Source of the DNA: Flaccisagitta enflata
Lineage: Eukaryota
Assembly: GCA_965153355.1 (NCBI GenBank)
Contig: OZ231126.1
Location: forward strand, 46,748,001-46,812,000
Direction: 5' to 3'
Length of the DNA stretch: 64,000 nt
Made by a program: the position numbers and the translations under genes. Below the pieces are notes generated by a model. It had not been told where the DNA came from, searched no databases, and saw only the letters and a list, made by a program, of their open reading frames with translations. This document shows positions 9,730-61,350 of the stretch, in pieces (the first letter of the stretch is position 1; each line of letters opens with the position of its first letter).

Positions 9730-11000
9730 CACTGCCTCCGCCGCCGCCGCCGCCTCTGCCTCTGCTACAACAAATCTGTCTACATGATCTCAATCTCCCG
9801 CCGCCGCCTCCTCCATTTGTTTTGTATCATGGGTATTTTCATTGTAGAGATTACTTTCAGCTGCTACTATCTCTTTAACGCCGCCGCCGCCTCCTGCTGC
9901 TGCTGCTGCTGCTGCTCCTCCTCCTCCTCCGCCACTGACGCCGCCGCCGCCTCCACTCCTCCTCGTCCTTCCCCGCCGCCGCCGCCTCCTATCTTCCTTG
10001 TCCCTCTCTGCTGCCGCTGCCGCCTCCTCTCCTCCTCATCCTTCTCCGCCCCCGCCGCCGCCTCCACTCCTTGTCTTTCTCCGCCGCCGCCGCCGCCTCC
10101 ACTTCTCCTTGTCCTTCTCCGCCGCCTCCTCTCCTCCTCGTCCTTCTCTGCCGCCGCCACCGCCTCCTCTCCTCCTCGTTCTTCTCCGCCGCCGCCTCCA
10201 CTCGCCTCGTCCTTCTCCGCCGCCGCCGCCGCCTCCTCTCCTCCTCGTCCTTCTCCGCCACTGCCGCCGCCGCCGCCGCCGCCTCTTACCTCCTCCTTCA
10301 CCGCCGCCTCCTCTCCTCATCCTCCTCCTCCTCTTCCCACTCTGCTGCCGCCGCCGCCGCCGCCTCCTCCTCCTCTGCCGCCACCGCCTCCTCCTCCTCC
10401 TCCTCCCCAACTGCCGCCGCCGCCGCCTCCTTTCCAAAAAAAAATCAAGAACATTTTATAAAATATCAAAAAAAGAACCAAATTTAAAAGAAATCAAATA
10501 AAAGAAATGAAAAAAAAAGAAAAAGAAAATCTAAAAAAAGTATTTGAAATGAATTAAAAGAATAATTAAAAAAAAATTCAAGGAGAGGAGGCGGCAGCGG
10601 GCGTGCGTGGCGGCGGCGGCGGTGGAGGAGGAGGAGGAGGAGGAGGCGGCGGCAGCAGCAGCAATGGAGGAGGAGGAGGCTATGGCGGAAAAGGAGGAGG
10701 CGGCGGCAGGGGAGGAGGAGGCGGCGGTGGTTGTGGGGGAGGAGGCGGCGGCGGCGGCGGAGGAGGATGAGGAGGTTGAGGAGAGGAGGTGGTGGCAAGG
10801 GAGGAGGAGGAATGAGGAAGCAGTGGTGGTTGAGGAGGAGGAGGATGTGGAGGTGGGAGAGAATTTTTTTTTACTTTAATGGTGAGGAAGATGTGTACTA
10901 CACATTTTGTAGCAGCATGGGAGGGGGCAACAAAGCTGGTGAGGGCGGCGGTGGCAGGAGGGGGGCTATAACAGTGGAGGCAGAGGCGGCGGTGGCAGGT
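9730..11000. repeat. GC-rich (GCC/CCT)n tract followed by a complementary (GGC/GGA)n tract
   Basis: About 9730-10435 is C-rich, 10436-10580 is an A-rich spacer, and 10583-11000 is G-rich. Confidence 0.85.
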
Positions 11001-28414: not shown

Positions 28415-29010
28415 ATGGGATTTCACCGGATTACCATCGCATTCTCTCCCTGTTTGGTCACCGTCGTCGTCGCCGTCGTTTTCGTCGCCGTCGTCGGTTT
28501 GGCGATACTTCCCATCAGCCGCGTCGATACGGCGCCGATGCCGCAGCGTTACTTGTCGGGTTACGGCAGTGGCGGCGGCAGCGGCGGAGGAAGTGGTTAC
28601 GGCTACCGAGGCGGCGGCGGTGGTGGAGGAGGCGGTGGAAGTGGTTATCGTAGTGGCAGCGGCGTAAGACAACGTTACGGATATAACGCGGGCGGCAGGG
28701 GAAGAGGCAGTATTCTCGGCAGTGGTGGCCGACGCGGCAATAGCGGCGGGGGTGGTGGTGTTGGCTACGGGCGGCGATATTCTCCGAGTGGTCGCCCGTC
28801 GTCAGGGGGTGATGTCGTCGACGAATCCTTCGCTCACGACTTTTTGCAGCAATTTGGTTACATCCCTAAAGAGAAGAACGACTCGCGCGCTGCGGCTTCC
28901 GCCAACAGCGTCAGTCTAGAGGGATCCATCGCCAACTTTCAAAGAGTGGCCGGTATCCCGCAAACCGGATACTTGGACAAAACCACCAAACAATGGATGA
29001 AAAGACCCAG
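28415..29010 (+). CDS. Matrix metalloproteinase (peptidase M10A), exon 1: hydrophobic leader, Gly-rich segment, prodomain
   Basis: ATG at 28415, hydrophobic N-terminus, then FLQQFGYI...IANFQRVAGIPQTGYLDKTTKQWMKRPR, typical of MMP prodomains. Donor AG|GTGAG, phase 2. Confidence 0.9.
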
Positions 29011-29450
29011 GTGAGAAATGAAGAAAGGAAGGAAGGAAGGGAGGAAGGAAGGAAGGAAGGGAGGAAGGAAGGAAGGAAGGAAGCAAGGAAGCAAGGAAGC
29101 AAGGAAGGCGGGAAAGGCGGGAAGGGCGGAGGGCGGAGGGCGGGGACGGACGTATCCTTCTACAGCTCAAAAACAATGATAAGCTTATTTGCATATTGCA
29201 GTCGTTAAATTTCTTTCATGTTCTAAAACGATAAATCATCAATCTTGTTTTCACAATATGCAAATGAATAAGCCGTATTTCTTTATATAATCCAATATCA
29301 ACTTCCATGATTTTATACCCTTTTTATCTTTGAACCTCGGGTCGAAAGTCACTAAAGGTGCCCATTTGACTCCCCCACTGAGTATCCTACTAAAATTGAT
29401 GATATCAAGGATTCTTTGAACTAATAGACCAATAAACTAAACTGTCTGAA

Positions 29451-35090: not shown

Positions 35091-35256
35091 ATGTGGAATG
35101 CCGGATGGGGCAAAAGAGGAAGACGCCAACGCGACGATGGGAGAATATTCTCTGTATTACACGAAATGGCCGAGGAAGAAACTCACTTGGTCCATCGTCA
35201 GATATGGGAAAATGGGCGAATTGGGTCGGTCCACGATAGACAACATTCTTGCCCAG
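35091..35256 (+). CDS. MMP exon 2: cysteine switch and start of catalytic domain
   Basis: Acceptor (T-tract)...AAACAG|A completes PR-CGMPD; also encodes KWPRKKLTW. Donor CAG|GTACG, phase 0. Confidence 0.93.
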
Positions 35257-39772: not shown

Positions 39773-39942
39773 GCTTGGAAGGCGTGGTCTGACGTCTCCC
39801 AACTAACGTTCGAGCGGCGTCCGGACGGATCGCCGGTCGACATCCGAGTCAGTTTCGCCGCTGGAAGCCACGGCGATGATTCGCCCTTCGACGGACCGGG
39901 AAGAGTTCTGGCTCATGCCTTCTATCCACAACCATTCGCCAG
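39773..39942 (+). CDS. MMP exon 3: catalytic domain (structural Zn/Ca region)
   Basis: Acceptor CTTTGCAG|GCT. Encodes AWKAWSDVSQLTF...DIRVSF...HGDDSPFDGPGRVLAHAFYP. Donor AG|GTTCGT, phase 2. Confidence 0.95.
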
Positions 39943-40012
39943 GTTCGTGACTTAAAGTGTGTGTTTGATTTGGTGTAGAATGAAGATTGTGTGTTGGTTT
40001 GTTTTTGTGCTG

Positions 40013-40177
<165 letters not shown>

Positions 40178-40201
40178 GTCAGATGGTTTGTTTTTGTGCT
40201 G

Positions 40202-40266
<65 letters not shown>

Positions 40267-40291
40267 TGTGTCTGTGTCTGTGTCTGTGTCT

Positions 40292-40358
<67 letters not shown>

Positions 40359-40414
40359 AGACAGCAAGTGAATTAATAAGGACGAAAGCAAGAAAGGAAG
40401 GAAAAAAGGAAAAA

Positions 40415-40943
40415 ATAATAGTCGCAAAAGCGTCAGATGGTCAGCGGTACCCGGTAAGTTAGTGAATGTAAGATGTGAAGGTGAGAGGGGCAGCGGCCCC
40501 GAAGTAGCCGATGACCTATGCTGGGCTAAGATTCTAGCATTGATGCTGGGATTTGAGCCACGAGGCAGAAGAGGAGCAATCAGGCTTGGATTGGAGCCTC
40601 TTGACTGGGCTTTGAGCCTCTTGACTGGGCTTTGAGCCTCATGGCTAAGGTCCTAGCCTCAAGGCTGGGATTGGAACCATGAGGCTGGGATTGGAGCCTC
40701 AAGTTTGGGATTGGAGCCTTGAGGCTGGGATTGGAGCCTCAAGGTTAGGATTGGAGCCTCAAGGCTGGGATCCGAGCCTCAAGACCGTAATTTGAGCCTC
40801 GAGGCTGGAATTAGAGCCAGTATTACGAGCCTCGAGGCGGGGGGGGGGGGGGACGGAGGAGGAGAAGGAGAAGGAGGAGGAAAAAATCTCCCATGTGTGT
40901 GAGAGCATAGGTCATCGGTCCCTTCGGGGCCGCTGCCCAAAAA
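40415..40943 (-). mobile_element. HINE-like family B with a 21-bp tandem array
   Basis: GGGCAGCGGCCCCGAAG...GACCTATGC pairs with GCATAGGTC...CTTCGGGGCCGCTGCCCAAAAA; GGATTGGAGCCTCAAGGCTGG-type repeats inside. Confidence 0.7.
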
Positions 40944-40944
40944 A

Positions 40945-41014
<70 letters not shown>

Positions 41015-41678
41015 ACGAAAGAACGAAAGAACGAAAGAACGAAAGAAAGAAATTTCTTTTCGTTCAATAGTGAAAGAAGAGAAAGCGAGAAAAAACTGTA
41101 GAGATTGAAGGAAGGGAAAAAAGAAGATGACGACGAAAGATATAAAACTTGATTCCTGCCTGATCCTTTTTGAAAATAAACGGATTACGAGAAAGAAAGA
41201 AATCACATAAACGTAAAAATGGAACAGAAATGGAAACTTATAATTCCCCATGGATCGATAAAGAGAAAAAGCTTTATAAAACGTGTCTTCGTTCCTCCCG
41301 CAGTCCGCTTCAATACAATGGCGCCCTTTCCATGTTCCACGCGAATTTGAAATAAACATGTCCAGATATATGTCTACTTCAGTCGCGTGCGGGTGGGCAG
41401 GGGCTGTATTTGAGGTCACTGGACTATTTGGTCAGGAGCAGTGAAGCTTATAATCGCAAAAACAAACCAAATAAAAACAAGATGTGACGGATCATTCGAT
41501 CGACTGACGGACGGACAAAGCGTGGTGTAGAGTCATGTAGCACGAGACTATAAAGCAGAAAAAATATAGCTGTTTTCAGTTAAGATATTTTTAAAGATTC
41601 AATTAAAAACTTTCATTCTTAAAGTATTAAGATATCTTTAAAAATTCATCTAAAAACTTTCATTCTTAAAAAACTTAC

Positions 41679-41815
41679 TCCCTTTGTAAACAAAATAAAT
41701 AGCATCATCAGATTGAAGCCTAATGGAAGTACTGTGCAGGAGTTTTCCCTTTGTAAACAAAATAAATAGCATCATCAGATTGAAGCCTAATGGAAGTACT
41801 GTGCAGGAGTTTTCT
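41679..41815. repeat. Tandem duplication with a 67-bp period
   Basis: TCCCTTTGTAAACAAAATAAATAGCATCATCAG...GCAGGAGTTTTC appears twice. Confidence 0.9.
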
Positions 41816-42636
41816 AATGATCGAGAATCTTAGATTTTTAGGCAAATCCTAAGATTTTTTGCCAAAAACAGACATTTAAAAGTGCGTTTTTTTTCTTTTT
41901 GATACGCGTGGTAGTCTCAAGAAACAGGAAAAGGAAATGGGAAAGCACGTAAACTCAATGCCAGAATTTTTTTTTATATCATGGAATCATTGAGAATGAT
42001 TAACGAGACGGAAAATGTGGAATCTATTTATGGAATCCAGGCGAGCGCAAATGTGCATGACGCCAACGCCTCTCTGCAGTGATGTCGTGAATCGTATAAC
42101 CTCTAAATCAGTGCCAGTCGAGGATCTCGAGTTGTCAAAGGTCAACTTCAAGACCCAGAATCTTGCCTTCAAGACCAAGATCCTTGCCTTGGAGACATAG
42201 ATCCCGGCTTCAAAGACCTGGATACTGGTTTCAAAGGTTTGAAAGGATCTGGATTTAAAGGTTTGAAAGGTTTGAAAGGATCTGGATTCATCACTTAGTT
42301 TGTAAAAAAAGTTTCGGTTGCTTCGTTTACTCATTTCTAAACGACGATCAATTCTTTTATACGCGAGCACGCGACTCATGAACCCGCTCTGTCTGTCGGT
42401 GAGTTAGTCCGTTGGTCCTTCGATTGGGTTGGTCCATCACATCAGTTGGCCGGTTCATAACACAACCCCATCCGGACGCGACTTAGCTAGTCGTGCATCC
42501 GGCCTTTTCCTAACACAATACACAACCGATTCTATAGAAAAACAAAATAGCAAGTTTTGTCCACCATCTAACCGTCCATAAATGAATCGAACTTTGACCA
42601 CCGCGCCGCGCTGTCTAGATCTTGAAAGGTCAGCTT

Positions 42637-42779
42637 TTAGTCACGGACACGCGACTCTAGAACTTGCCGTGTCGGTCGGTCGGCTGGTCGGTCGGTCACG
42701 TCATGTCACGTCACATTTCGATTTTCCGCTCCTGCCCACCCGTCCGCGACTGGGGGGGGAGTGTATACGGCCTTGTTTC
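42637..42779 (+). mobile_element. HINE family A copy directly upstream of the candidate cassette exon
   Basis: TTTTAGTCACGGACACGCGACT ... CCTGCCCACCCGTCCGCGACT ... GTGTATACGGCCTTGTTT. Confidence 0.75.
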
Positions 42780-42807
42780 TTTTGCTCCTTTTCTTTTTTG
42801 CTCGCAG

Positions 42808-43017
42808 ACTAGACCAAAAACGTGACCGATGTTATCAACCATTTGGTATGGCTTTAGATAAAGGCCCCTCCCTACATGGCTTCCACCCATTCGAGGAATT
42901 TTCGCTTCATGTGGTTCACGAGGGAGGTGTAAACGTTGGCGTCCCCCCCCCCAGGCTGGGGTACCCTGCCTCCTCTCACTTCGTTCCACCACAACCACCT
43001 CCATCATTAAGATTTTG
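42808..43017 (+). CDS. Candidate cassette exon of the MMP (210 nt, phase 2-2, open in frame)
   Basis: Strong pyrimidine tract plus CGCAG acceptor and TG|GTAAGA donor. No stop in the MMP frame. No recognisable homology. Confidence 0.4.
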
Positions 43018-46000
43018 GTAAGATAGAAGAAACCAAGTCAGAGAAATATCGCAGGTCATCCGCATCCGAAAGCATCGTTTTTTTTTAAATGGTTTTTAAA
43101 CACAGTTTTTAAAAAAAACTGTTCATCTTCGGTTTAAAAAAAAAATTGGAAGTTGAATCATTTTCTGCATACAGCCTGATACAGGCAACCATTTTATTTC
43201 ACTTCATGGCACCATGGCCATGGCCAAGGGGAGATGTAAAGAGGGACAGTGGAATAGAGAGTGTCGGAGAAATGGAGGAGAAAATTTATTTATTGAATAC
43301 AATACAGTTTAGTTAAGCTTCGCTACAGTGCATGCCAAGAGACTTGGAAAAAATATGCAATCATCCACAATAATTCATGATCTTTTTTATAAAATGGTAA
43401 AATCTTAATCAAAACAAATTTTACCAACTGATTCTGGTTAGCCTGGTTGAATTACAGATATTGTTTAGGCTTGTTACAATAGATATGATAAAAGTCAACT
43501 AGCACAGATCAAAAGTGGTCTGCTTTCTTTTAAATCAAAGTTTTTTTTTCAATTGAAAATCTTTCATTACTTAGTTTAAAGGCAGTAAAGCTTAATTCAA
43601 TTGATTTGAGGCTATTTGCAAAGATAGTGAAGCTGCGTTATTGCTAATACAGGAATAGCGACAAAATCGTTTGTGGGACTGCAAGCTAAATGCCTAATAG
43701 GAGGGCATGCCTTAAAAGCTTTATTGGTAAATTTTATTCATGGCAAGTGTCACGCTTTGGCAGCAAGCAAGGGTGCCCGACTCTCCAACATCTTAAGAGT
43801 AACCAGGCTTGAGCTATGGCTTTGAACTATGAATCAATGGTTTGATGTCATCCCTAACAGTCAGGTGTACATTGTCAAACCTAGTTTTGAGACATTCGTG
43901 ACCCCTAGGGGGCCCTTAATTAGGGTCAAATGGTCAAATTTGGCTTGTCTCCTGCTTGTCTCCACATAAAAAGTGCAAGCAGAAGCAATCAAAAAATGTC
44001 TAAATGGACCGTATCATGACTCCTTATCATTTAATATTGATCACTTGAAACGTACAAAAAATTTGTTTGAGCTCCGTTGACAATAAGTTCCTTAAAAACG
44101 GTTTTCTGTACACCCTCTATTTTTGAGCAAAATTTCACTCAGATCACAGTATGATAATTATTATTTTTTTAAACTTAACTTTGCTTCATAGTTAAGCATA
44201 TTATGTTTGTTTGTCTGAAAGACAACTACTTGAAGGGCATATTTCCCAAATTTCATGTTTCCTAGTGGCTCCAAAGCGGCTTTATTGCATTTTTTCTAGA
44301 GCATATCAATTCGCGCACACTTCCAGATTTGTTCCTAACGCATACCTAACGCTTAAGATATGCCACTATGGCGTGAAAACGACACAGTTTACACAAAATC
44401 TGATCACACCACGTGAAAGAGCGTGAAATTTTGAATCTAGACTGAAAATTTCAAGTCTTAACTACCAGACGTTTGGCCACAACGAAATTTTACATTTTGT
44501 TGGTCCTGAAGTGTGAACAGAATTGATACGCTCATCGACGGCTCATCGTAGTTAATTCTTTGTTTCCACACAGCGCTCCTCACACAAATGCGCGATGCTT
44601 TTGTGTCTAAATTTGATAAAATTTCTTAAAATTGAAATTGGCATATCTCAGGAACGGTTTGAGCTAGCCCATTGAAATTTTGCATGGTTGGTACCTAGAC
44701 CAAGAGGGTCTTTTGCTTAAATTCTGATGCGACCTACAGAATGTCAAGCAGTCCAACCAGACCAATCAGCCTACCAGATGAAAAAAATGAAAAAATGGCA
44801 TAACTTCTAAAGTAATTGTCCGATTTGGTTGAAATTTTTCATGAAGCTTCCTCTAAAGATTCCTCGTCACTGGCATAAAAAAGAGCTTGGGGAAAAAATA
44901 TTTTCTCCCGACAGCCCACCCAGCCAGAAATGGTACTTATAGAGATTTTTTTTAAAAACTAAAAAAATTCAAAAAAATTTCAGAAACATGATCTCAAATG
45001 TTTGCTTGAACCTTATCAATAAGAATTTCACTGTCATATTGATTTCTTAGTTGTATTTAGCTAAATTTTCTAGTAATAAAATTGCCAACAATATCTATTT
45101 AAGCCTAATTTGCATGAAAAATGAGCTTACTTAAGAAAATCCAAGTATGGATTCATATGTAAGAATAGGTAAGCTACATGATGACGTATGGTTTTGTTCA
45201 ATATTCGAACATGTAAATTTGATGAATTTCATCCCGTCCATGTCGGGTTAGCGTGACACAAGCCTCATACACTCATGCACAAAAACCGCAACGCAACTTC
45301 AAACATCTTCCATTTCTCGTTTTTTTTTTCGCCTTGACTCATAATTCTTGAAATGCCGCCAAAATCAGGTTGCAACTTCGCATAAAAAAGCTGAAGAATC
45401 TTAATGAAGCAAAGCCCAATAAAATCTGTTCAAGGTCTCCCCAAGACTCAAGGCTCATGAATTTTGTCGTCGAGTTACAAAACCTCTTAGTCGCATACAC
45501 GCGACTATATATATGCTGCTGTGTCAGTTTATTTATCCGTCGGTTTTTGCAGCTTTTTGTTTTTCAAACAAACAAACAAGCAAACAAACAAACAAACAAA
45601 CAAACAAACAAACAAACAAACAAACAAACAAACAAACAAACAAACAAACAAGGCAAAGTGGGCTAATACGTATGCCTACTAACCAACCGACCAACCGATC
45701 AACACAGCCTCTTACTGACGTGCGTTGGCGCACATTTTCAAAAACAGCAAGGACAACGGGCGAAGATAAAGGCGAAAAAAATAGAATTTTATTAGAATTA
45801 AAGAATACAAAGTTTTAGAGGCATAGTGTACCGTTAATTAATCAAGCACGAAACGTGCACCGTGCTGCCAGATGTAACACACCATTGTGAGAAGCTCTTT
45901 TAAAAAGAGGTATCGAAACGAAAGTGAATTCGGTGGGACGGTAGCCTTCCCCAATCTCCATGGAGGTCATAAATTTTGTTTTTCTTAACACTTTTTTTAA

Positions 46001-46577
46001 ACTTGCGAAGGTTTCATTCCAAAAATAGAAATGATTACTTCCTAACCAATTTTTCGCAACAACTCTTTTGTTGTTTCCGTTTAAAATAAAAGGCCATTAA
46101 ATGCAGTCGGTGGACAATAGTTGTCTGCGTAGTTTTACTCCCTGTACATTGTATCGTTTTTCAATTGATGATAACAAATCATAAATTCTTACAAATCTAC
46201 TAATACTCGGCTATCAAAGTATTACACTTCTTTGGCAAATGGAGAGAAATAAAAACAAGCCCAAGGCAGGACAAATTCGCGGATGGTTGGGCAGGGGCAG
46301 AACTACACTATTTCTGTACTACATTATTGTAGTACAACAGTACAACAGTATTTTACACTCACATGTCACATGTCACATGTCATATAACCTAAAGCTAAAA
46401 CAAAAAACAACGGTAAATCAAAAATGTAGGGATGGACGGATGGAGGGATGGGTGGATGGACAGACGAATCAACCGACACAGCAAGGTGTAGAGTCGCATT
46501 ATTGATATGATTTATTCAGACATTTTCAAGTAAGCAAATAATGCAATCACTTAAGCATCAAATTTTAATGCATGTGC

Positions 46578-47098
46578 CATTTGGGTGCTTCACATAGCAA
46601 AAGTTGGGAGTATCCCTTCACCCTACTTAGGTAATGTGGAGGAGCAAAAATCATGAAGATGACCATTTTCCTTTTTTCAAAATTCCTTCATCTTCCGTTT
46701 TTGTTTTAGCCTTAAAGTTTCCACTGATTTCCCAGAATTCAGCAAAATCCTGTGTAGTTTTGTTACAAAAAGGACAATTATTTGTTTTAAAAAATCATGA
46801 TATATGTAAAAATAAACTAAAATATCAGAACATAAGTTATGAAAGAGCAAATGAAAAGGCAGAATTGCAATTCTATGAAGAGTAGAAAATTATGAAAGCT
46901 GATTCAAACATTGTCAGCATATTGTTTTATCCCGCTGCATTATGCAAATTAGGTCCTCAAAAGCAATTTTCTAAAAAACGGAAGATGAACGATTTTTGAT
47001 AAAACAAAAATGGTAAAGTACCTAAAATTGGTCACTCCACATTAGGTAAAGAGGGCGAAAAGAAATAACCAACTTTTGCTATGCGAAGCACGCAAATG
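46578..47098. mobile_element. MITE with 30-bp core TIRs and a possible 3-bp TSD
   Basis: CATTTG(G/C)GTGCTTC(A/G)CATAGCAAAAGTTGG inverted at both ends; TGC on both flanks. Confidence 0.75.
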
Positions 47099-48078
47099 TG
47101 CCATATTGCAAACTGGTTGCAGTTGCAAGTGCCACTGTGTAGCGAGGCTCCAATCTCAACTCCCCTGCCAACCCCCCCCCCTCGCATTCTAACGTTGCTT
47201 CCTGACTCCCACGAGTCCCACCTCGACCCAACTCACCTGTCAGTCCGATATCCCACTTTTGCTAACGTCATTCCTCTCTCCCATCTTGCCAGAAACCTTT
47301 CGTGCTCATTAGCTTTTGCGCCAAAAAGACAAGATCGGAAATAATTATAATAGCATCTCAATACAGACAGACAAGACGGGAAATGCTATCTCATATTTGC
47401 TTCACCCCCACAAGTCTAGGAAATAGAATGGAATTAGGTGATTTGCGCCATAAAACTAGATCTGTTTGAAAGGTGTTTTCTTAGTAGAAAATCTCAGCCG
47501 CTTAAACATTTAGGTTCTTTCATCTACTGACTATGTAGTTCAAGTCTCCGTCATGCATTGTCATGGCTGACGGGCCTGAATTTTGCATTTTACGTATGAG
47601 GGTATTTTTACTCCATTTTCCTAGATCTCATAAAATTGCACTTTTGAGTTCATTTAGTACTGACGTTTATAACTTGTCCTCTATATGAATGCCCTGCCCT
47701 GAAACTAGACCAAGGGGATAAATTGGGTCTATTTGCATTGATATTTGGTAAGAGACAAATGATTTTGGGCCTAAAGTGATTCTATTTCCTGATATCCTAT
47801 AAATGATGGGACTGTGGCTTGATAAGACCGGAAATTTCATCGGTTATATGCAATGGAAAAGGAGAGAATGTTGATCATGTGACCTCAATTCGAGAATGAT
47901 ATGAAATACTTCTACTAATGATTGTTCGAAGATACAAAAGCTGACTCGGAACGACGTAAATCAATCCTAATGAGTTTTGCCTTACTTGTATCGGGGGCCT
48001 CCGGATTACAAAATAACCCTCCCCTCCCCCCCTCTACGTCCTGTATCCAATTCCTTCTTTCTGTGCTATCCTAATTGA

Positions 48079-48306
<228 letters not shown>

Positions 48307-48774
48307 TGAATAAAAGTTTTTATGAATGAATGTCATATATTAATGAATGAATGCTTTAATGTATGCAACTTTCACTGGGTTAGTACCACTCATCTGTCAA
48401 AAAATACGCAAGACTGATGCTTTTTATAAATGCGTTACCTTCCAACAGACCAATCAACAGAAAAATGGACATAGCATATTGTAGAGATGCGAGTACGCAT
48501 CTAATAAAAGAATGTGTTGTGAAGGAGAAACTTTTCCGTTGGTGATCGCTTTGATTGGTTGCCATGCAAAAATGAATGATTAAGAACACTATGGCACGCT
48601 GGTATTCAAAACATATGTTTTATTTGTGAACAAGTGATGCTAATGCTCCTCCCTTTTTGTCAACCAGTATTTCTTAGCTTGCTCCATTGATTTATGTGAG
48701 ATCTCAACACTATTTTACAATGGACAACTTATGAATTCTTTCTTTCTGAATCTGTCAATTTTACTACCCTTCAG

Positions 48775-49400
48775 CTCCGTGATGTGGCCCTACGCTCAGC
48801 GATACAGTCCTAACTTTGAGCTTCAAGAGGATGACATTTTGGGAATCCAAGCGCTCTACGGCAAACCTCGAACGACGACGCGAGCGACCACAACCACGAC
48901 GACTACAACCACAACACCACCACCGACGACCACGACTACGACCACAACTACGACCACAACGACCACTACTCCATCACCAACTACGACGACCACAACAACG
49001 ACGCCGACGACGAAAGCGACGAAACCAACGAAACCTCCTTACGTAATAGTGGCAGCGGTGACGACGCCAAACAGTCGACAAATCCCGGGAGGAGCGGTAG
49101 ACGTCACCACTAAAAGAGACACCAACGTCGTCACCACCACCAACCCCGCCATCACCACCAAAGCCGTCTCACACGACCCTATCACCAAATCGACCACCAT
49201 ACCGACCACGACCACGACCACGACACCACCGCCACCAACTACCACCACGACAACCACCACCACGACGACCACGACCACCACGACGGAGCCACCGGGACCG
49301 CCACCACCGCCATATTGCGATGGCAAGCTGGACGCCATCATGACGGTTGGCCGTAAGATATTTGCCTTCCGCGATGACATGGTTTACGAGTTGGAGCAAG
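48775..49400 (+). CDS. MMP exon 5: Met-turn, Thr/Pro-rich hinge, first hemopexin blade
   Basis: Acceptor CTTCAG|C, phase 2. Encodes SVMWPY...DDILGIQALYG, then a poly-Thr hinge, then CDGKLDAIM...IFAFRD. Donor G|GTAAAT, phase 1. Confidence 0.93.
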
Positions 49401-49673
49401 GTAAATCTCATAATCTCACATTTCTTCTCATTCTCGCGATTGCTCTTCCGCGCTTTTTACAAGATTAACACCCCGATCATCTTTTTCCATCTGCTTCAGT
49501 GTCAGTTGATAGGAAGAATACGTAATACGGGAGAGGATTCTTTTTCTTTTCTTTACATTTTCATCTTCTTCTTCATCATCTTTTTCATTTTCAACTTCAT
49601 CTTCATCTTTTGCTTCTTTTTCTTCTTCTTCCTCTTCTTCTTCTCTCTTTTCTGTTTCTTCCCGTTGTTGTTC

Positions 49674-52842: not shown

Positions 52843-53290
52843 GATGTAGTTTTGACGGACCTAACGACCAATTGACGGAATAACATCAACGTCGTGACTA
52901 GAAATGCTCTAAAGCCTTTGCAGGCGTCACACCAGGCTGCCAAAGTGTTTTGAATTTGATAGCCCCGCGGAGCCACTCCCAGTCTTTGTTTGTATCTCAT
53001 TATCATCTTCAATTTTTTACGATCAACGCCAACTGCGATAGAAAACGCCGCGTGGAATGCGAATTACTGTCTACAACCACAGGCGCAAGTGATGAAGATT
53101 TGTCTTTTTCTCCTTTTTTTTCAAAGTCGGCAGAAATAAGTTGAGTAGATGGCGTGACCATGTCGCGCGCACTTGGGCTGGGATGAAGAAAAAAGTAGTG
53201 ACTGATGAAAATGGAAACCGAACACCAAAAAGAAGTTCCAAGCAATAGCTCTCATTGTGTGTGTCCAAAAGAATAAGCACTTGCTTTTAG

Positions 53291-53909
53291 CACTGCTTTC
53301 TGACAGATGATTTGTGACAAGAATGATATCACTCCGGGTTTTTCTGCATTTTTGTGTCGGTCATAGGGATACAAATCAAGAACTATTCAGTGGAAAATCA
53401 TCCCTAGAGCGCATTTTGAAAAAAAGTCAAAAACTTATAATTTTTAGCTTCATTTTGCACAAAGAACTTTTCAATTTGGTCGGACTCTTTTTTTAACAGC
53501 ATATTATTAATCCTGATAAAATTCCCTTTCATTTGATAGGTCGCACTATATGGTTTTGATTAAAAATTGAGTTTTCATATTTTAGGCCACCGCTTTAATT
53601 TTTGTAACGGTGGCTCAAAATATGAAAATGTTATTTCTTTTTAAAACCATATAGTGCGACCTATCAAATGAAAGGGAATTTTATCAGGATTAACAATACA
53701 CTGTCAAAAAATTAGTCAGACCAACCTGCAAAGTTATTCATGTATAATGAAGCTAAAAATTGTAAATTTTTGACTTTTTTTCAAAATGCGCTCTAGGGAT
53801 GATTTTCCAAAGGATAGTTCTTGATTTGTACCCCTATGACCTACAAAAAAATGCAGAAAAACCCGGAGTGATATAATTCTTGTCACAAATCATCTGTCAG
53901 AAAGCAGTG
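53291..53909. mobile_element. Near-fully palindromic MITE (CMC/Chapaev-like ends)
   Basis: CACTGCTTTCTGACAGATGATTTGTGACAAGAAT...CAGAAAGCAGTG, 4-bp TSD TTAG. Confidence 0.9.
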
Positions 53910-54323
53910 TTAGATTATTGCACAGTAAGATGGAACAGGAGTTACAGATAAGAAATAAACTTTTTCATAACCTAGCTGCACTGGAAAGACTGCTTTTAAG
54001 CTTTTAACTTAAAAGTTCATGCACTTATAAATCTTGACAATATTTGACTATGATGTTCAGTTTTTCGCTTTGGCCTTTCGACCATTATATTTCATTGCGA
54101 CCAGAGCGAGATTCATGACTGCTACTTGGTTAATTCATACCAGGCTTAATGTGGCGTCTTTGATAAATTGTAATATCCATACTAGAATGGGTACAATATG
54201 GGCATTCAAAAGAAAAATGATTTCCAAGCACTTTTGATATCCCATTTGTATAATCAAAGTCCAATCTACTTGGATTTGGACTTATTCCAGGCACCGCGTC
54301 ATCAATGCTTTAGTTGTATAGAA

Positions 54324-57854: not shown

Positions 57855-57939
57855 TATGTGAAGTAAGGCAAATCGGATATAGTTAGGGTATTGTTACTTG
57901 TTTGCGCGAAATCGATCCTTTTTGGGCAGCGGCCCCATA

Positions 57940-58535
57940 ACTATGGCAAAGAAAAAAAGCGAACACTTTGTTTTGCTAGTTTCTGCTCAACTATGGGCCT
58001 GAACCATAGAAAATCCATGACCGTTTTAAAGCTCTGCAAAAAATCTTCCAAATGCGACGTTGCTGGTCATTGTAGCTTTATTCGTTTAGAAATGGCAATG
58101 GTTTGAAGAAAAATATCGCCGATTGAAAAAAGCGCTTATTTCAACTTTTTTCCAATGAGCGATTTTAGTCTTTCCGTTTTTGTCAATAATGCAGCTCAGG
58201 ATTGTCTTAGCTACTCGTTATCCATGAGCAAATTAAAGAGCTTCAAATTTTCTTTAAAATGGCGCCAAGAATGATTTTTTAACTCAATGCGTTTAGTTTT
58301 TATGTAAGAATAAAGATAACCCATGAAAGTGGCGTAGTGAATTTCCAAATTCTTGACCACCTGTCTTCATTCTAATGCCATTTCTGAACGGATAGAGCTA
58401 GAACATCCAGCAAGGTCTCACTTGAAAGATCTTTCGCAGATCTTTAAAATGGTCATGGATTTTGCTATGTTTTTCTCATTGCTTGTATCTGAAACATTGA
58501 CAAACAAGTTGTTCGCTTTTTTTTTTTGCCATAGT
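57940..58535. mobile_element. 596-bp MITE, copy 1 (TA TSD)
   Basis: TA|ACTATGGCAAAGAAAAAAAGCGAACA ... TGTTCGCTTTTTTTTTTTGCCATAGT|TA. Confidence 0.9.
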
Positions 58536-58773
58536 TAGGGCCGATGTCCTGTTGGACACAGGGGTGAATTTCCAGATGTCTGTCCGTCCGTCTGTACGTC
58601 CGTCTATCCCCCCCCCCCATTAAAGCGTCTGAGCCTCATGTTCCCATTGAAAAACATGGAACATTGAAGAAATGCAAAATTTCCATTGAATAACATGGAA
58701 AATTGATAAAGAAATGAAAAAAATATCAAATTCCCATTGAATAACATGGAAAATTTACTAGAAGTTAAAAATA

Positions 58774-59818: not shown

Positions 59819-59869
59819 TATGGGAAATCCCTATTGAATAAAATGGAAAATTGACAAAATTTTGAAATA

Positions 59870-60465
59870 ACTATGGCAAAGAAAAAAAGCGAACACTTTG
59901 TTTTGCTAGTTTCTGCTCAACTATGGGCCTGAACCATAGAAAATCCATGACCGTTTTAAAGCTCTGCAAAAAATCTTCCAAATGCGACGTTGCTGGTCAT
60001 TGTAGCTTTATTCGTTTAGAAATGGCAATGGTTTGAAGAAAAATATCGCCGATTGAAAAAAGCGCTTATTTCAACTTTTTTCCAATGAGCGATTTTAGTC
60101 TTTCCGTTTTTGTCAATAATGCAGCTCAGGATTGTCTTAGCTACTCGTTATCCATGAGCAAATTAAAGAGCTTCAAATTTTCTTTAAAATGGCGCCAAGA
60201 ATGATTTTTTAACTCAATGCGTTTAGTTTTTATGTAAGAATAAAGATAACCCATGAAAGTGGCGTAGTGAATTTCCAAATTCTTGACCACCTGTCTTCAT
60301 TCTAATGCCATTTCTGAACGGATAGAGCTAGAACATCCAGCAAGGTCTCACTTGAAAGATCTTTCGCAGATCTTTAAAATGGTCATGGATTTTGCTATGT
60401 TTTTCTCATTGCTTGTATCTGAAACATTGACAAACAAGTTGTTCGCTTTTTTTTTTTGCCATAGT
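59870..60465. mobile_element. 596-bp MITE, copy 2 (TA TSD)
   Basis: Appears identical to copy 1 at an offset of 1930 (identical 61-aa ORFs at 58353 and 60283), but with different flanks. Confidence 0.9.
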
Positions 60466-61350
60466 TAAATGCACAATTCAGATTTAATAATGTGGATAAT
60501 TTACAATGAAATGGAAAAAATTCAATGTTCTCATCGGAAGAAAAGTAGCCCCAAAGGCCTCAAATGTGCCTTCTCAGGATGTCTGGAAATTCACCCCTGG
60601 GTCCTACAGGACATCGGTTTTTTGGGGCCGCTGCCCCACTCTCACTCCATTTCTGCAGCTAATCACTCTAAGCAGGGCATCGGGTACCGCTGACCATGTG
60701 CGATCCTTGGATGACTAGTTATATTTGCTGTATATGTGGAGCGTAACATGATAAAGCGCATTTTAGCAGCGTGGCCTCTGCGTTTTGGAAGGTGACTTCC
60801 GTCGCTTCGTTAATCGGCATATGATGCTAATGACATTTAAAAATCATACCATACCAAGCGTCCATGAATGTAGAAAATACTGTTGACGGCTTCCTATGGG
60901 GCATGGGAGTGGGGTGGCCGAAAGGAAAACATGGACAAAATAATTTGATTATGGAAATGTCAAATATGGTGTAAAAATTGATGGTTTGCGCGAAACTTCG
61001 TTCTGGATCTACCGGTGATAGTGCCTAACGTGTAGGTACATCGCTTCCCCTTACATTGTTATTGAAGGCAAACGTAATTCAACAATTTACGGACATGATT
61101 CCAGCAACTGGATGATAAGTCTCAAATAGTGTCTGTCAACTACGGTGGTCTTTTCACTCAATCTTTCCTGTGCCATGGTCGTTAGAGCAAGTTGAAACCT
61201 AGATTGATCAGTAACATCGCGTGGGCAGGGGTGGGCAGGGGCAACCCCCCATGATATTGATCGATTGGCAGATGGATCAACCAAAGCGACTAACATGCTT
61301 GTGACTGAAAATCTTCCCTCAAACGATGGGGCAAAAGTAAAAATATAATA

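Follow-up and report, generated by a model that had tools for sequence, protein, structure and literature searches.

A frame-preserving 210-nt segment in a matrix metalloproteinase intron of Flaccisagitta enflata, best read as an intronic pseudo-exon

Results and discussion

The MMP gene and its surroundings

The window, the whole 64,000-nt stretch of DNA that was analysed, carries a matrix metalloproteinase (MMP) gene on its plus strand (Table 1). The gene has the features of the matrixin/MMP family (PF00413), namely a cysteine switch, an HExxHxxGxxH zinc site and a Met-turn (SVMWPY), and its homologues carry PF00413. Exon 3, which ends ...CCATTCGCCAG/gt at position 39942 (the slash marks the exon edge), encodes the catalytic-domain strands up to sIV and was aligned to approximately residues 37-90 of the solved MMP-1, -3 and -13. 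Exon 4, which begins ag/GCCAACGG at 48102, was aligned to approximately residues 92-131 of the solved MMP-13. Matches of these two exons to solved catalytic domains in the PDB have E values of approximately 1e-12 to 1e-13, while the nearest named proteins, e.g. an MMP of Lytechinus pictus, are 31-58% identical per exon. MMP introns within the window amount to approximately 33 kb, about four times the length of intron 3, in which a microsatellite occupies positions 40016-40174.

Several other features of the window were recorded. Exon 5 holds a long, mucin-like linker rich in Thr and Pro (48869-49300) between the catalytic and hemopexin domains; this linker attracts reads from unrelated organisms, resulting in spurious joints in RNA mapping. 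A later MMP intron contains a foldback formed by an inverted repeat (53288-53592 and 53608-53912), the 305-nt arms of which are 89% complementary and 15 nt apart. A direct duplication (57867-58538 and 59866-60468), with copies approximately 1.9-2.0 kb apart, repeats three consecutive open frames with identical peptides. Upstream of the MMP gene, Gly-rich, coding-like stretches of GGN repeats (repeat family D17) are located at 10600-10815 and 28559-28750.

Table 1. Positions of the MMP gene pieces, the candidate segment and the adjoining features within the window.
Feature	Position	Strand	Remarks
MMP pro-domain piece	28841-29011	+	
MMP cysteine-switch exon	~35092-35256	+	CGMPDG...DNILAQ
MMP exon 3	39773-39942	+	AWKAWSDV...AHAFYPQPFA + AG of split Arg codon; tblastn, MMP homologues
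MMP intron 3	39943-48101	+	8159 nt, phase 2; microsatellites and repeat pieces abundant
Degenerate HINE-like (non-autonomous Helentron-like) repeat	42635-42778 (to 42785)	+	central (GTCG/GTCC)n tract; 3' end GGCCTTGTTT
Pyrimidine-rich tract and AG acceptor	42771-42807	+	
Candidate frame-preserving segment	42808-43017	+	210 nt, would add 70 residues; best read as pseudo-exon
Nested 63-nt variant	42955-43017	+	own acceptor CCCCCCCCCAG/G (C run); common donor and frame
MMP exon 4	48102-48242	+	G + ... + GG; strand sV and zinc-binding helix
MMP exon 5 start	near 48774	+	SVMWPY Met-turn, then Thr-rich linker
Hemopexin pieces	downstream of MMP exon 5	+	

The 210-nt segment

Intron 3 contains a segment whose first base (42808) directly follows an acceptor context, TTTTCTTTTTTGCTCGCAG, at 42789-42807, and whose last base (43017) is followed by a donor-like GTAAGA at 43018-43023. 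A sequence-only reading had put this segment forward as a cassette exon of the MMP gene; its coordinates, acceptor, GTAAGA donor, 210-nt length and phase 2 were all exact on re-reading. Read in the frame that the phase-2 intron dictates, the segment gives R-LDQKRDRCYQPFGMALDKGPSLHGFHPFEEFSLHVVHEGGVNVGVPPPRLGYPASSHFVPPQPPPSLRF-W with zero stops, the codons split at its edges being AG+A (Arg) upstream and TG+G downstream, and the stop-free translation in the MMP frame given by that reading (LDQKRDRCYQ...PPPSLRF) was reproduced from the letters. An in-frame TAA is present at 43019-43021, inside the donor-like hexamer. The open frame extends past the segment, spanning 42641-43021 (126 aa) and beginning 167 nt upstream within the repeat, and a minus-strand frame (42711-43037, 108 aa) is also open over the segment. 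Use of the nested acceptor, which scored 8.3 on the scale given below, would add 21 residues (LGYPASSHFVPPQPPPSLRF plus split codons).

Splice site strength and chance occurrence

Splice sites were scored using a crude position-weight matrix based on generic consensus frequencies from recall, the scores serving for ranking only. The segment scored 8.1 for its acceptor and 7.0 for its donor; with the same matrix, the real sites of MMP exon 3 yielded 9.7 for the acceptor and 6.0 for the donor, and the real acceptor of exon 4 yielded 6.1. A total of 378 AG..GT pairs in intron 3 are 30-400 nt in length, divisible by three and open in the MMP frame. Both sites score at least as high as those of the segment in two of the 378, the segment itself and the 63-nt variant with which it has its donor in common. 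Five strong pairs (50-300 nt) were found on both strands of the window, and only the segment and the 63-nt variant were symmetric and open. By the crude score, the segment is the best frame-preserving candidate in the window.

Simulation of intron-sized sequences, with 300 sequences per null model, yielded at least one candidate at the segment's own thresholds, chosen post hoc, in 0.3% of sequences (Markov-3) or 1% (shuffling of 30-nt blocks). The same simulations at thresholds of 6 and 5, which real sites pass, gave 4% and 11%. Approximately one in 100 random strong pairs would be a multiple of three in length and open in the host frame. The rarity of the segment is weakened by the post hoc choice of thresholds, by the roughly fourfold greater amount of intron available and by the many windows scanned: the segment is beyond chance for one intron, but not given approximately 33 kb of introns and many such windows.

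Composition of the open frame

The segment has a G+C content of 0.51 as against 0.40 for the intron. Stop trinucleotides occur at six of 208 positions (0.029, compared with 0.051 in the intron), approximately half the intronic density because the segment is GC-rich, and all six sit in the other two frames. If six stops were distributed at random over three frames, a given frame would be free of them with a probability of (2/3)^6, approximately 9%. Open frames come cheaply where GC is locally high, and this one is not peculiar to the segment.

By each of three measures of exon-like coding composition, GC3, CpG and codon score, the segment falls under all eight real MMP exon pieces. GC3 is 0.42 for the segment and 0.45-0.67 for the exon pieces, and the observed/expected ratio of CpG is 0.61, compared with 0.85-1.6 in the exon pieces and 0.75 in the intron. 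With 445 real codons as the training set, the codon-usage log-likelihood of the segment was -0.018 bit per codon. Every one of the eight leave-one-out exon values was higher (0.018-0.515), and the segment exceeded 96% of 80 open 69-codon intronic segments, a null set that includes microsatellites. The segment does not resemble an old coding exon; a newly recruited exon would look alike.

RNA, relatives and predicted fold

The RNA runs comprised four marine metatranscriptomes (0.10-0.12 of sampled words) and one poly(A) run, four runs being mapped to the stretch 40400-49500, which starts beyond exon 3. Intronic repeats and low-complexity DNA, rather than MMP exons, account for the shares of these runs. 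Depth over the bin containing exon 4 (48000-48303) was 0, 2.7, 0.1 and 0 in the four runs, i.e. the MMP exons were essentially uncovered, and it is alongside this that the depth of 0 in all four over bin 42832-43135, into which most of the segment falls, is to be read. Depth over the bin of the HINE-like repeat (42528-42831) was 1587, 5541 and 210, and reads also covered several pieces of the intron. In run X5, 304 of 12,162,974 records were mapped, 302 of them only partially, with zero on exon 4, the cassette or the HINE. An MMP splice joint was absent among the 15 of 22 joints listed, again from runs in which the MMP exons are essentially uncovered. Because the MMP gene has no measurable presence in these runs, they say nothing about splicing.

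Four pieces of intron 3 (43732-44375, 44548-44780, 46581-47001 and 47402-47823) exhibit approximately 90-99% identity to marine metatranscriptome contigs, and are probably transcribed dispersed repeats common to organisms in the samples. An exact 33-mer of exon 4 gave zero matches in metagenome contigs. P0008, an ENA protein of 109 aa, matches the exon 4 peptide at 100% identity, but its flanks have no counterpart in the window; this suggests a second locus, a paralogue or close relative, that would possess the same exon and other introns. P0008 was considered as a spliced transcript, given the similarity of its SLRFR-PTDIAG to the SLRFW-PTDIAG of the cassette, and was rejected because the flanks match nothing in the window. 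These flanks read like intron run-through of another locus or of a relative.

Searches for relatives of the peptide among longer proteins produced 102 candidates, none at E<=0.01, and none of 483 matches from a peptide pattern search of metagenome contigs was confirmed. Neither the peptide nor the long frames of 126 aa and 108 aa matched a Pfam family at E<=1. Atlas recognition of the peptide was 1231, below the 2300 reached by 91 of 100 proteins of known families, with a best feature of 0.79. HMMER analysis against 1.84 billion representatives yielded one marginal match at E 2.4e-4, to P0006, a protein of 3923 aa with fibronectin type III repeats. This match was rejected as chance, its score being summed over seven near-identical repeats; a single repeat is 29-35% identical to the peptide, at E 0.002 in a two-sequence comparison. 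A search of Rfam with 42300-43400 at E<=1 gave three chance-level rows, none of them on the segment or the repeat. The peptide is rich in Pro and His and has an unpaired Cys. Single-sequence AlphaFold2 prediction gave a mean pLDDT of 60.8 and no secondary structure, which is weak evidence as to its fold.

The adjoining repeat

The repeat 5' of the segment belongs to a family (D20) with many copies interspersed over both strands of the window, and its edge at 42635 coincides exactly with breaks in metatranscriptome contigs. Its 3' end is common to seven other copies in the window. In the other copies, a (GTCG/GTCC)n core is accompanied by AGTCGCGTGCACGCGACT and by GGCCG..CGGCC, with TTGTT(T)n after the latter. 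In the segment-side copy the palindromes are degraded, such that only 6-nt palindromes and one pair of 9-nt arms (89%) are left. HINEs (Helentron-associated interspersed elements) are described in PMC4067079 as having palindromic subterminal repeats, central microsatellites, a 3' stem-loop and terminal T strings, and are reported there to insert into T-rich DNA, the number of terminal Ts being variable. The HINE label proposed in the sequence-only reading denotes a real class, which a repeat with defined ends, interspersed copies and a microsatellite core appears to fit.

That reading also suggested that the transposon may have helped create the exon, the pyrimidine tract beginning at its T-rich 3' end. 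The repeat does adjoin the tract, but most copies show only 2-5 T past GGCCTTGTT, with longer C/T-rich continuations in two, and the reported preference of HINEs for T-rich DNA together with their variable terminal Ts means that most of 42779-42805 may be old target site. An origin of the tract in the HINE is borne out only in part. Neither the body of the segment nor a splice site derives from the element, homology to the repeat ending at 42778-42785. The possibility that the segment is itself a dispersed repeat had likewise been raised; no second copy of 42808-43017 was found in the window, where the segment is single-copy and not a dispersed repeat. Zero A residues occur between 42768 and 42805, so any branch-point adenosine for the acceptor would fall at 42760-42767, in the 3' end of the HINE-like repeat.

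This arrangement would suit a young, lineage-specific exon with low or tissue-restricted inclusion, recognised through exon definition, whose in-frame product would escape nonsense-mediated decay, without established function. The repeat would then give the only possible branch-point adenosines (42760-42767) and abut the pyrimidine tract. We consider such an exon unlikely, though worth keeping in view. Its acceptor and donor are strong, 210 nt is a typical exon length, and both the intron-like composition and the absent relatives are what is expected of newly exonized sequence; TE-derived pseudo-exons are, moreover, cited in PMC1935003 as a source of real coding exons. The exon body, however, is not repeat-derived, and the 2-5 T that follow GGCCTTGTT in other copies, taken with the T-rich targets of HINEs (PMC4067079), suggest that the tract may pre-date the element.

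Insertion point in the catalytic domain

The junction of exons 3 and 4 (approximately residues 90 and 92 of solved MMPs) lies in the sIV-sV hairpin, which runs from the AHAF strand to the GDAHFD strand. Alignment to solved MMPs bore out the earlier placement of the insertion in the surface loop that connects the AHAF strand to the GDAHFDD strand. Structural zinc is presumably bound by the His residues of both AHAF and DAHFD, and we take the intervening loop to bind calcium. Structural zinc and calcium are present in all MMPs according to the account of the family in PMC4474140.

The length of this loop was surveyed in 125 fetched MMP-family proteins (P0006 being left aside), of which 102 gave 113 AHA..D.H.D units; the remaining 23 were P0004, P0035 and, for the most part, fragments of 92-123 aa. 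The AHAF-DAHFD loop comprised 4-14 residues in the 113 units. Apparent loops of 20 and 89 residues were artefacts of a regular expression that began at an earlier AH, the inner loops being 5 and 10 residues. The loop of the host MMP without the cassette has 12 residues (YPQPFARPTDIA; 39920-39942 and 48102-48120), near the top of the range, and would become 82 residues with the cassette or 33 with the 63-nt variant. Lengths of this order do not occur among the surveyed proteins, and this argues for a strong structural limit or, were the exon real, for something without precedent.

A regulated cassette exon at this point would give a functional MMP isoform with a 70-residue, Pro/His-rich loop near the substrate cleft and the structural Zn/Ca sites, the specificity, activity or stability of the enzyme being changed. 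We hold this to be improbable. Equally hard to credit is a lineage-specific cassette exon beside a HINE-supplied branch site, encoding a probably disordered 70-residue loop in the calcium-binding sIV-sV hairpin, by which cleft access or metal-site stability would be altered or a new docking surface formed. Were the segment spliced in and its product folded, this would be the first MMP to have a large insert between the strands holding its structural zinc, and would offer a clear invertebrate example of a rolling-circle element contributing to the making of a coding exon. The indirect evidence points away from a functional isoform: the peptide, with its unpaired Cys, has no predicted fold and no relatives in the collections searched, GC3 and CpG are intron-like, and the loop is longer than 14 residues in none of the 113 surveyed units. 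Given the zinc and calcium roles that we ascribe to the hairpin, 70 extra residues would also risk misfolding. In favour of an isoform are the open, frame-preserving nature of the segment, the position of the insertion in the surface loop sIV-sV, the length that this loop already has in the host (12 residues against 4-14), and the gelatinases, which show that the MMP catalytic domain can hold a large inserted module (PMC4474140).

Interpretation

More doubtful still is that the GC-rich stretch is some other thing, such as a relic of a mobile element or of an old exon, a regulatory island or a separate transcript: its G+C content relative to the intron and the frames open on both strands are in keeping with this, and the minus-strand frame of 108 aa would fit a separate transcript, but neither long frame is in Pfam, no Rfam match lies over the segment, no second copy is present in the window, and the segment is uncovered in metatranscriptomes that cover neighbouring intronic repeats.

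The segment is, in our judgement, probably an unused intronic pseudo-exon. A single-copy, GC-rich stretch of an 8-kb, repeat-rich intron would here combine four features by accident: a long pyrimidine tract and AG just 3' of a HINE-like repeat, a near-consensus GT donor 210 nt further on, a length divisible by three and a stop-free frame. It would either be left out of the MMP mRNA or be included as splicing noise, and would encode no evolved protein module. We infer its non-use from the sequence features, the missing relatives, the intron-like composition and the tight loop length observed here. Pseudo-exons with plausible splice sites are stated in PMC1935003 to outnumber real exons approximately 10-fold. 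Against a pseudo-exon stand splice scores that rival those of real MMP sites, the simulation rate of 0.3-1% and a codon score above that of 96% of intronic segments, as well as the finding that the segment is not a dispersed repeat in the data examined. Both the pseudo-exon and the young exon with low inclusion are known kinds of thing. More generally, in a locally GC-rich stretch where open frames arise easily, strong splice-like signals combined with a length divisible by three and an open frame do not amount to evidence of an isoform without RNA or comparative data.

Comparison with known systems

Among MMPs, the MT-loop of the membrane-type enzymes is alike in being a lineage-specific loop insertion in the catalytic domain; it comprises approximately 8 residues, is constitutive and occupies a loop other than sIV-sV. 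MMP-16 (1rm8_A) spans 59 residues over the exon 3 region compared with 52-53 in other chains. In the gelatinases, the fibronectin type II insert comes after strand sV rather than in the sIV-sV loop. This insert of MMP-2 and MMP-9 (PMC4474140) resembles the candidate as a large extra module, encoded by extra exons, in the catalytic domain. It is, however, a folded, conserved and constitutive triple domain, whereas the candidate peptide is without a family or predicted fold.

Exonized Alu elements supply both the body of the exon and its splice sites. Here, in contrast, the window has one copy of the exon body, and the element would add no more than a few T and a branch site. The likeness to TE-assisted (Alu-type) exonization, which is mentioned in PMC1935003, consists in a repeat directly 5' of the acceptor, the 3' end of which holds the sole candidate branch adenosines. 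The repeat is similar to the HINE/DINE-1-like elements described in PMC4067079 in its interspersed copies, central microsatellite and T-rich surroundings, and its other copies would also match them in a palindrome near one end, a short stem-loop and a 3' T string; the segment-side copy differs in that its palindromes are degraded. With intronic pseudo-exons the segment has in common a position deep in a long intron, good acceptor- and donor-like flanks and an exon-like length, and it differs from them in being divisible by three, open in the frame of its host and bounded by sites that score as well as real MMP sites.
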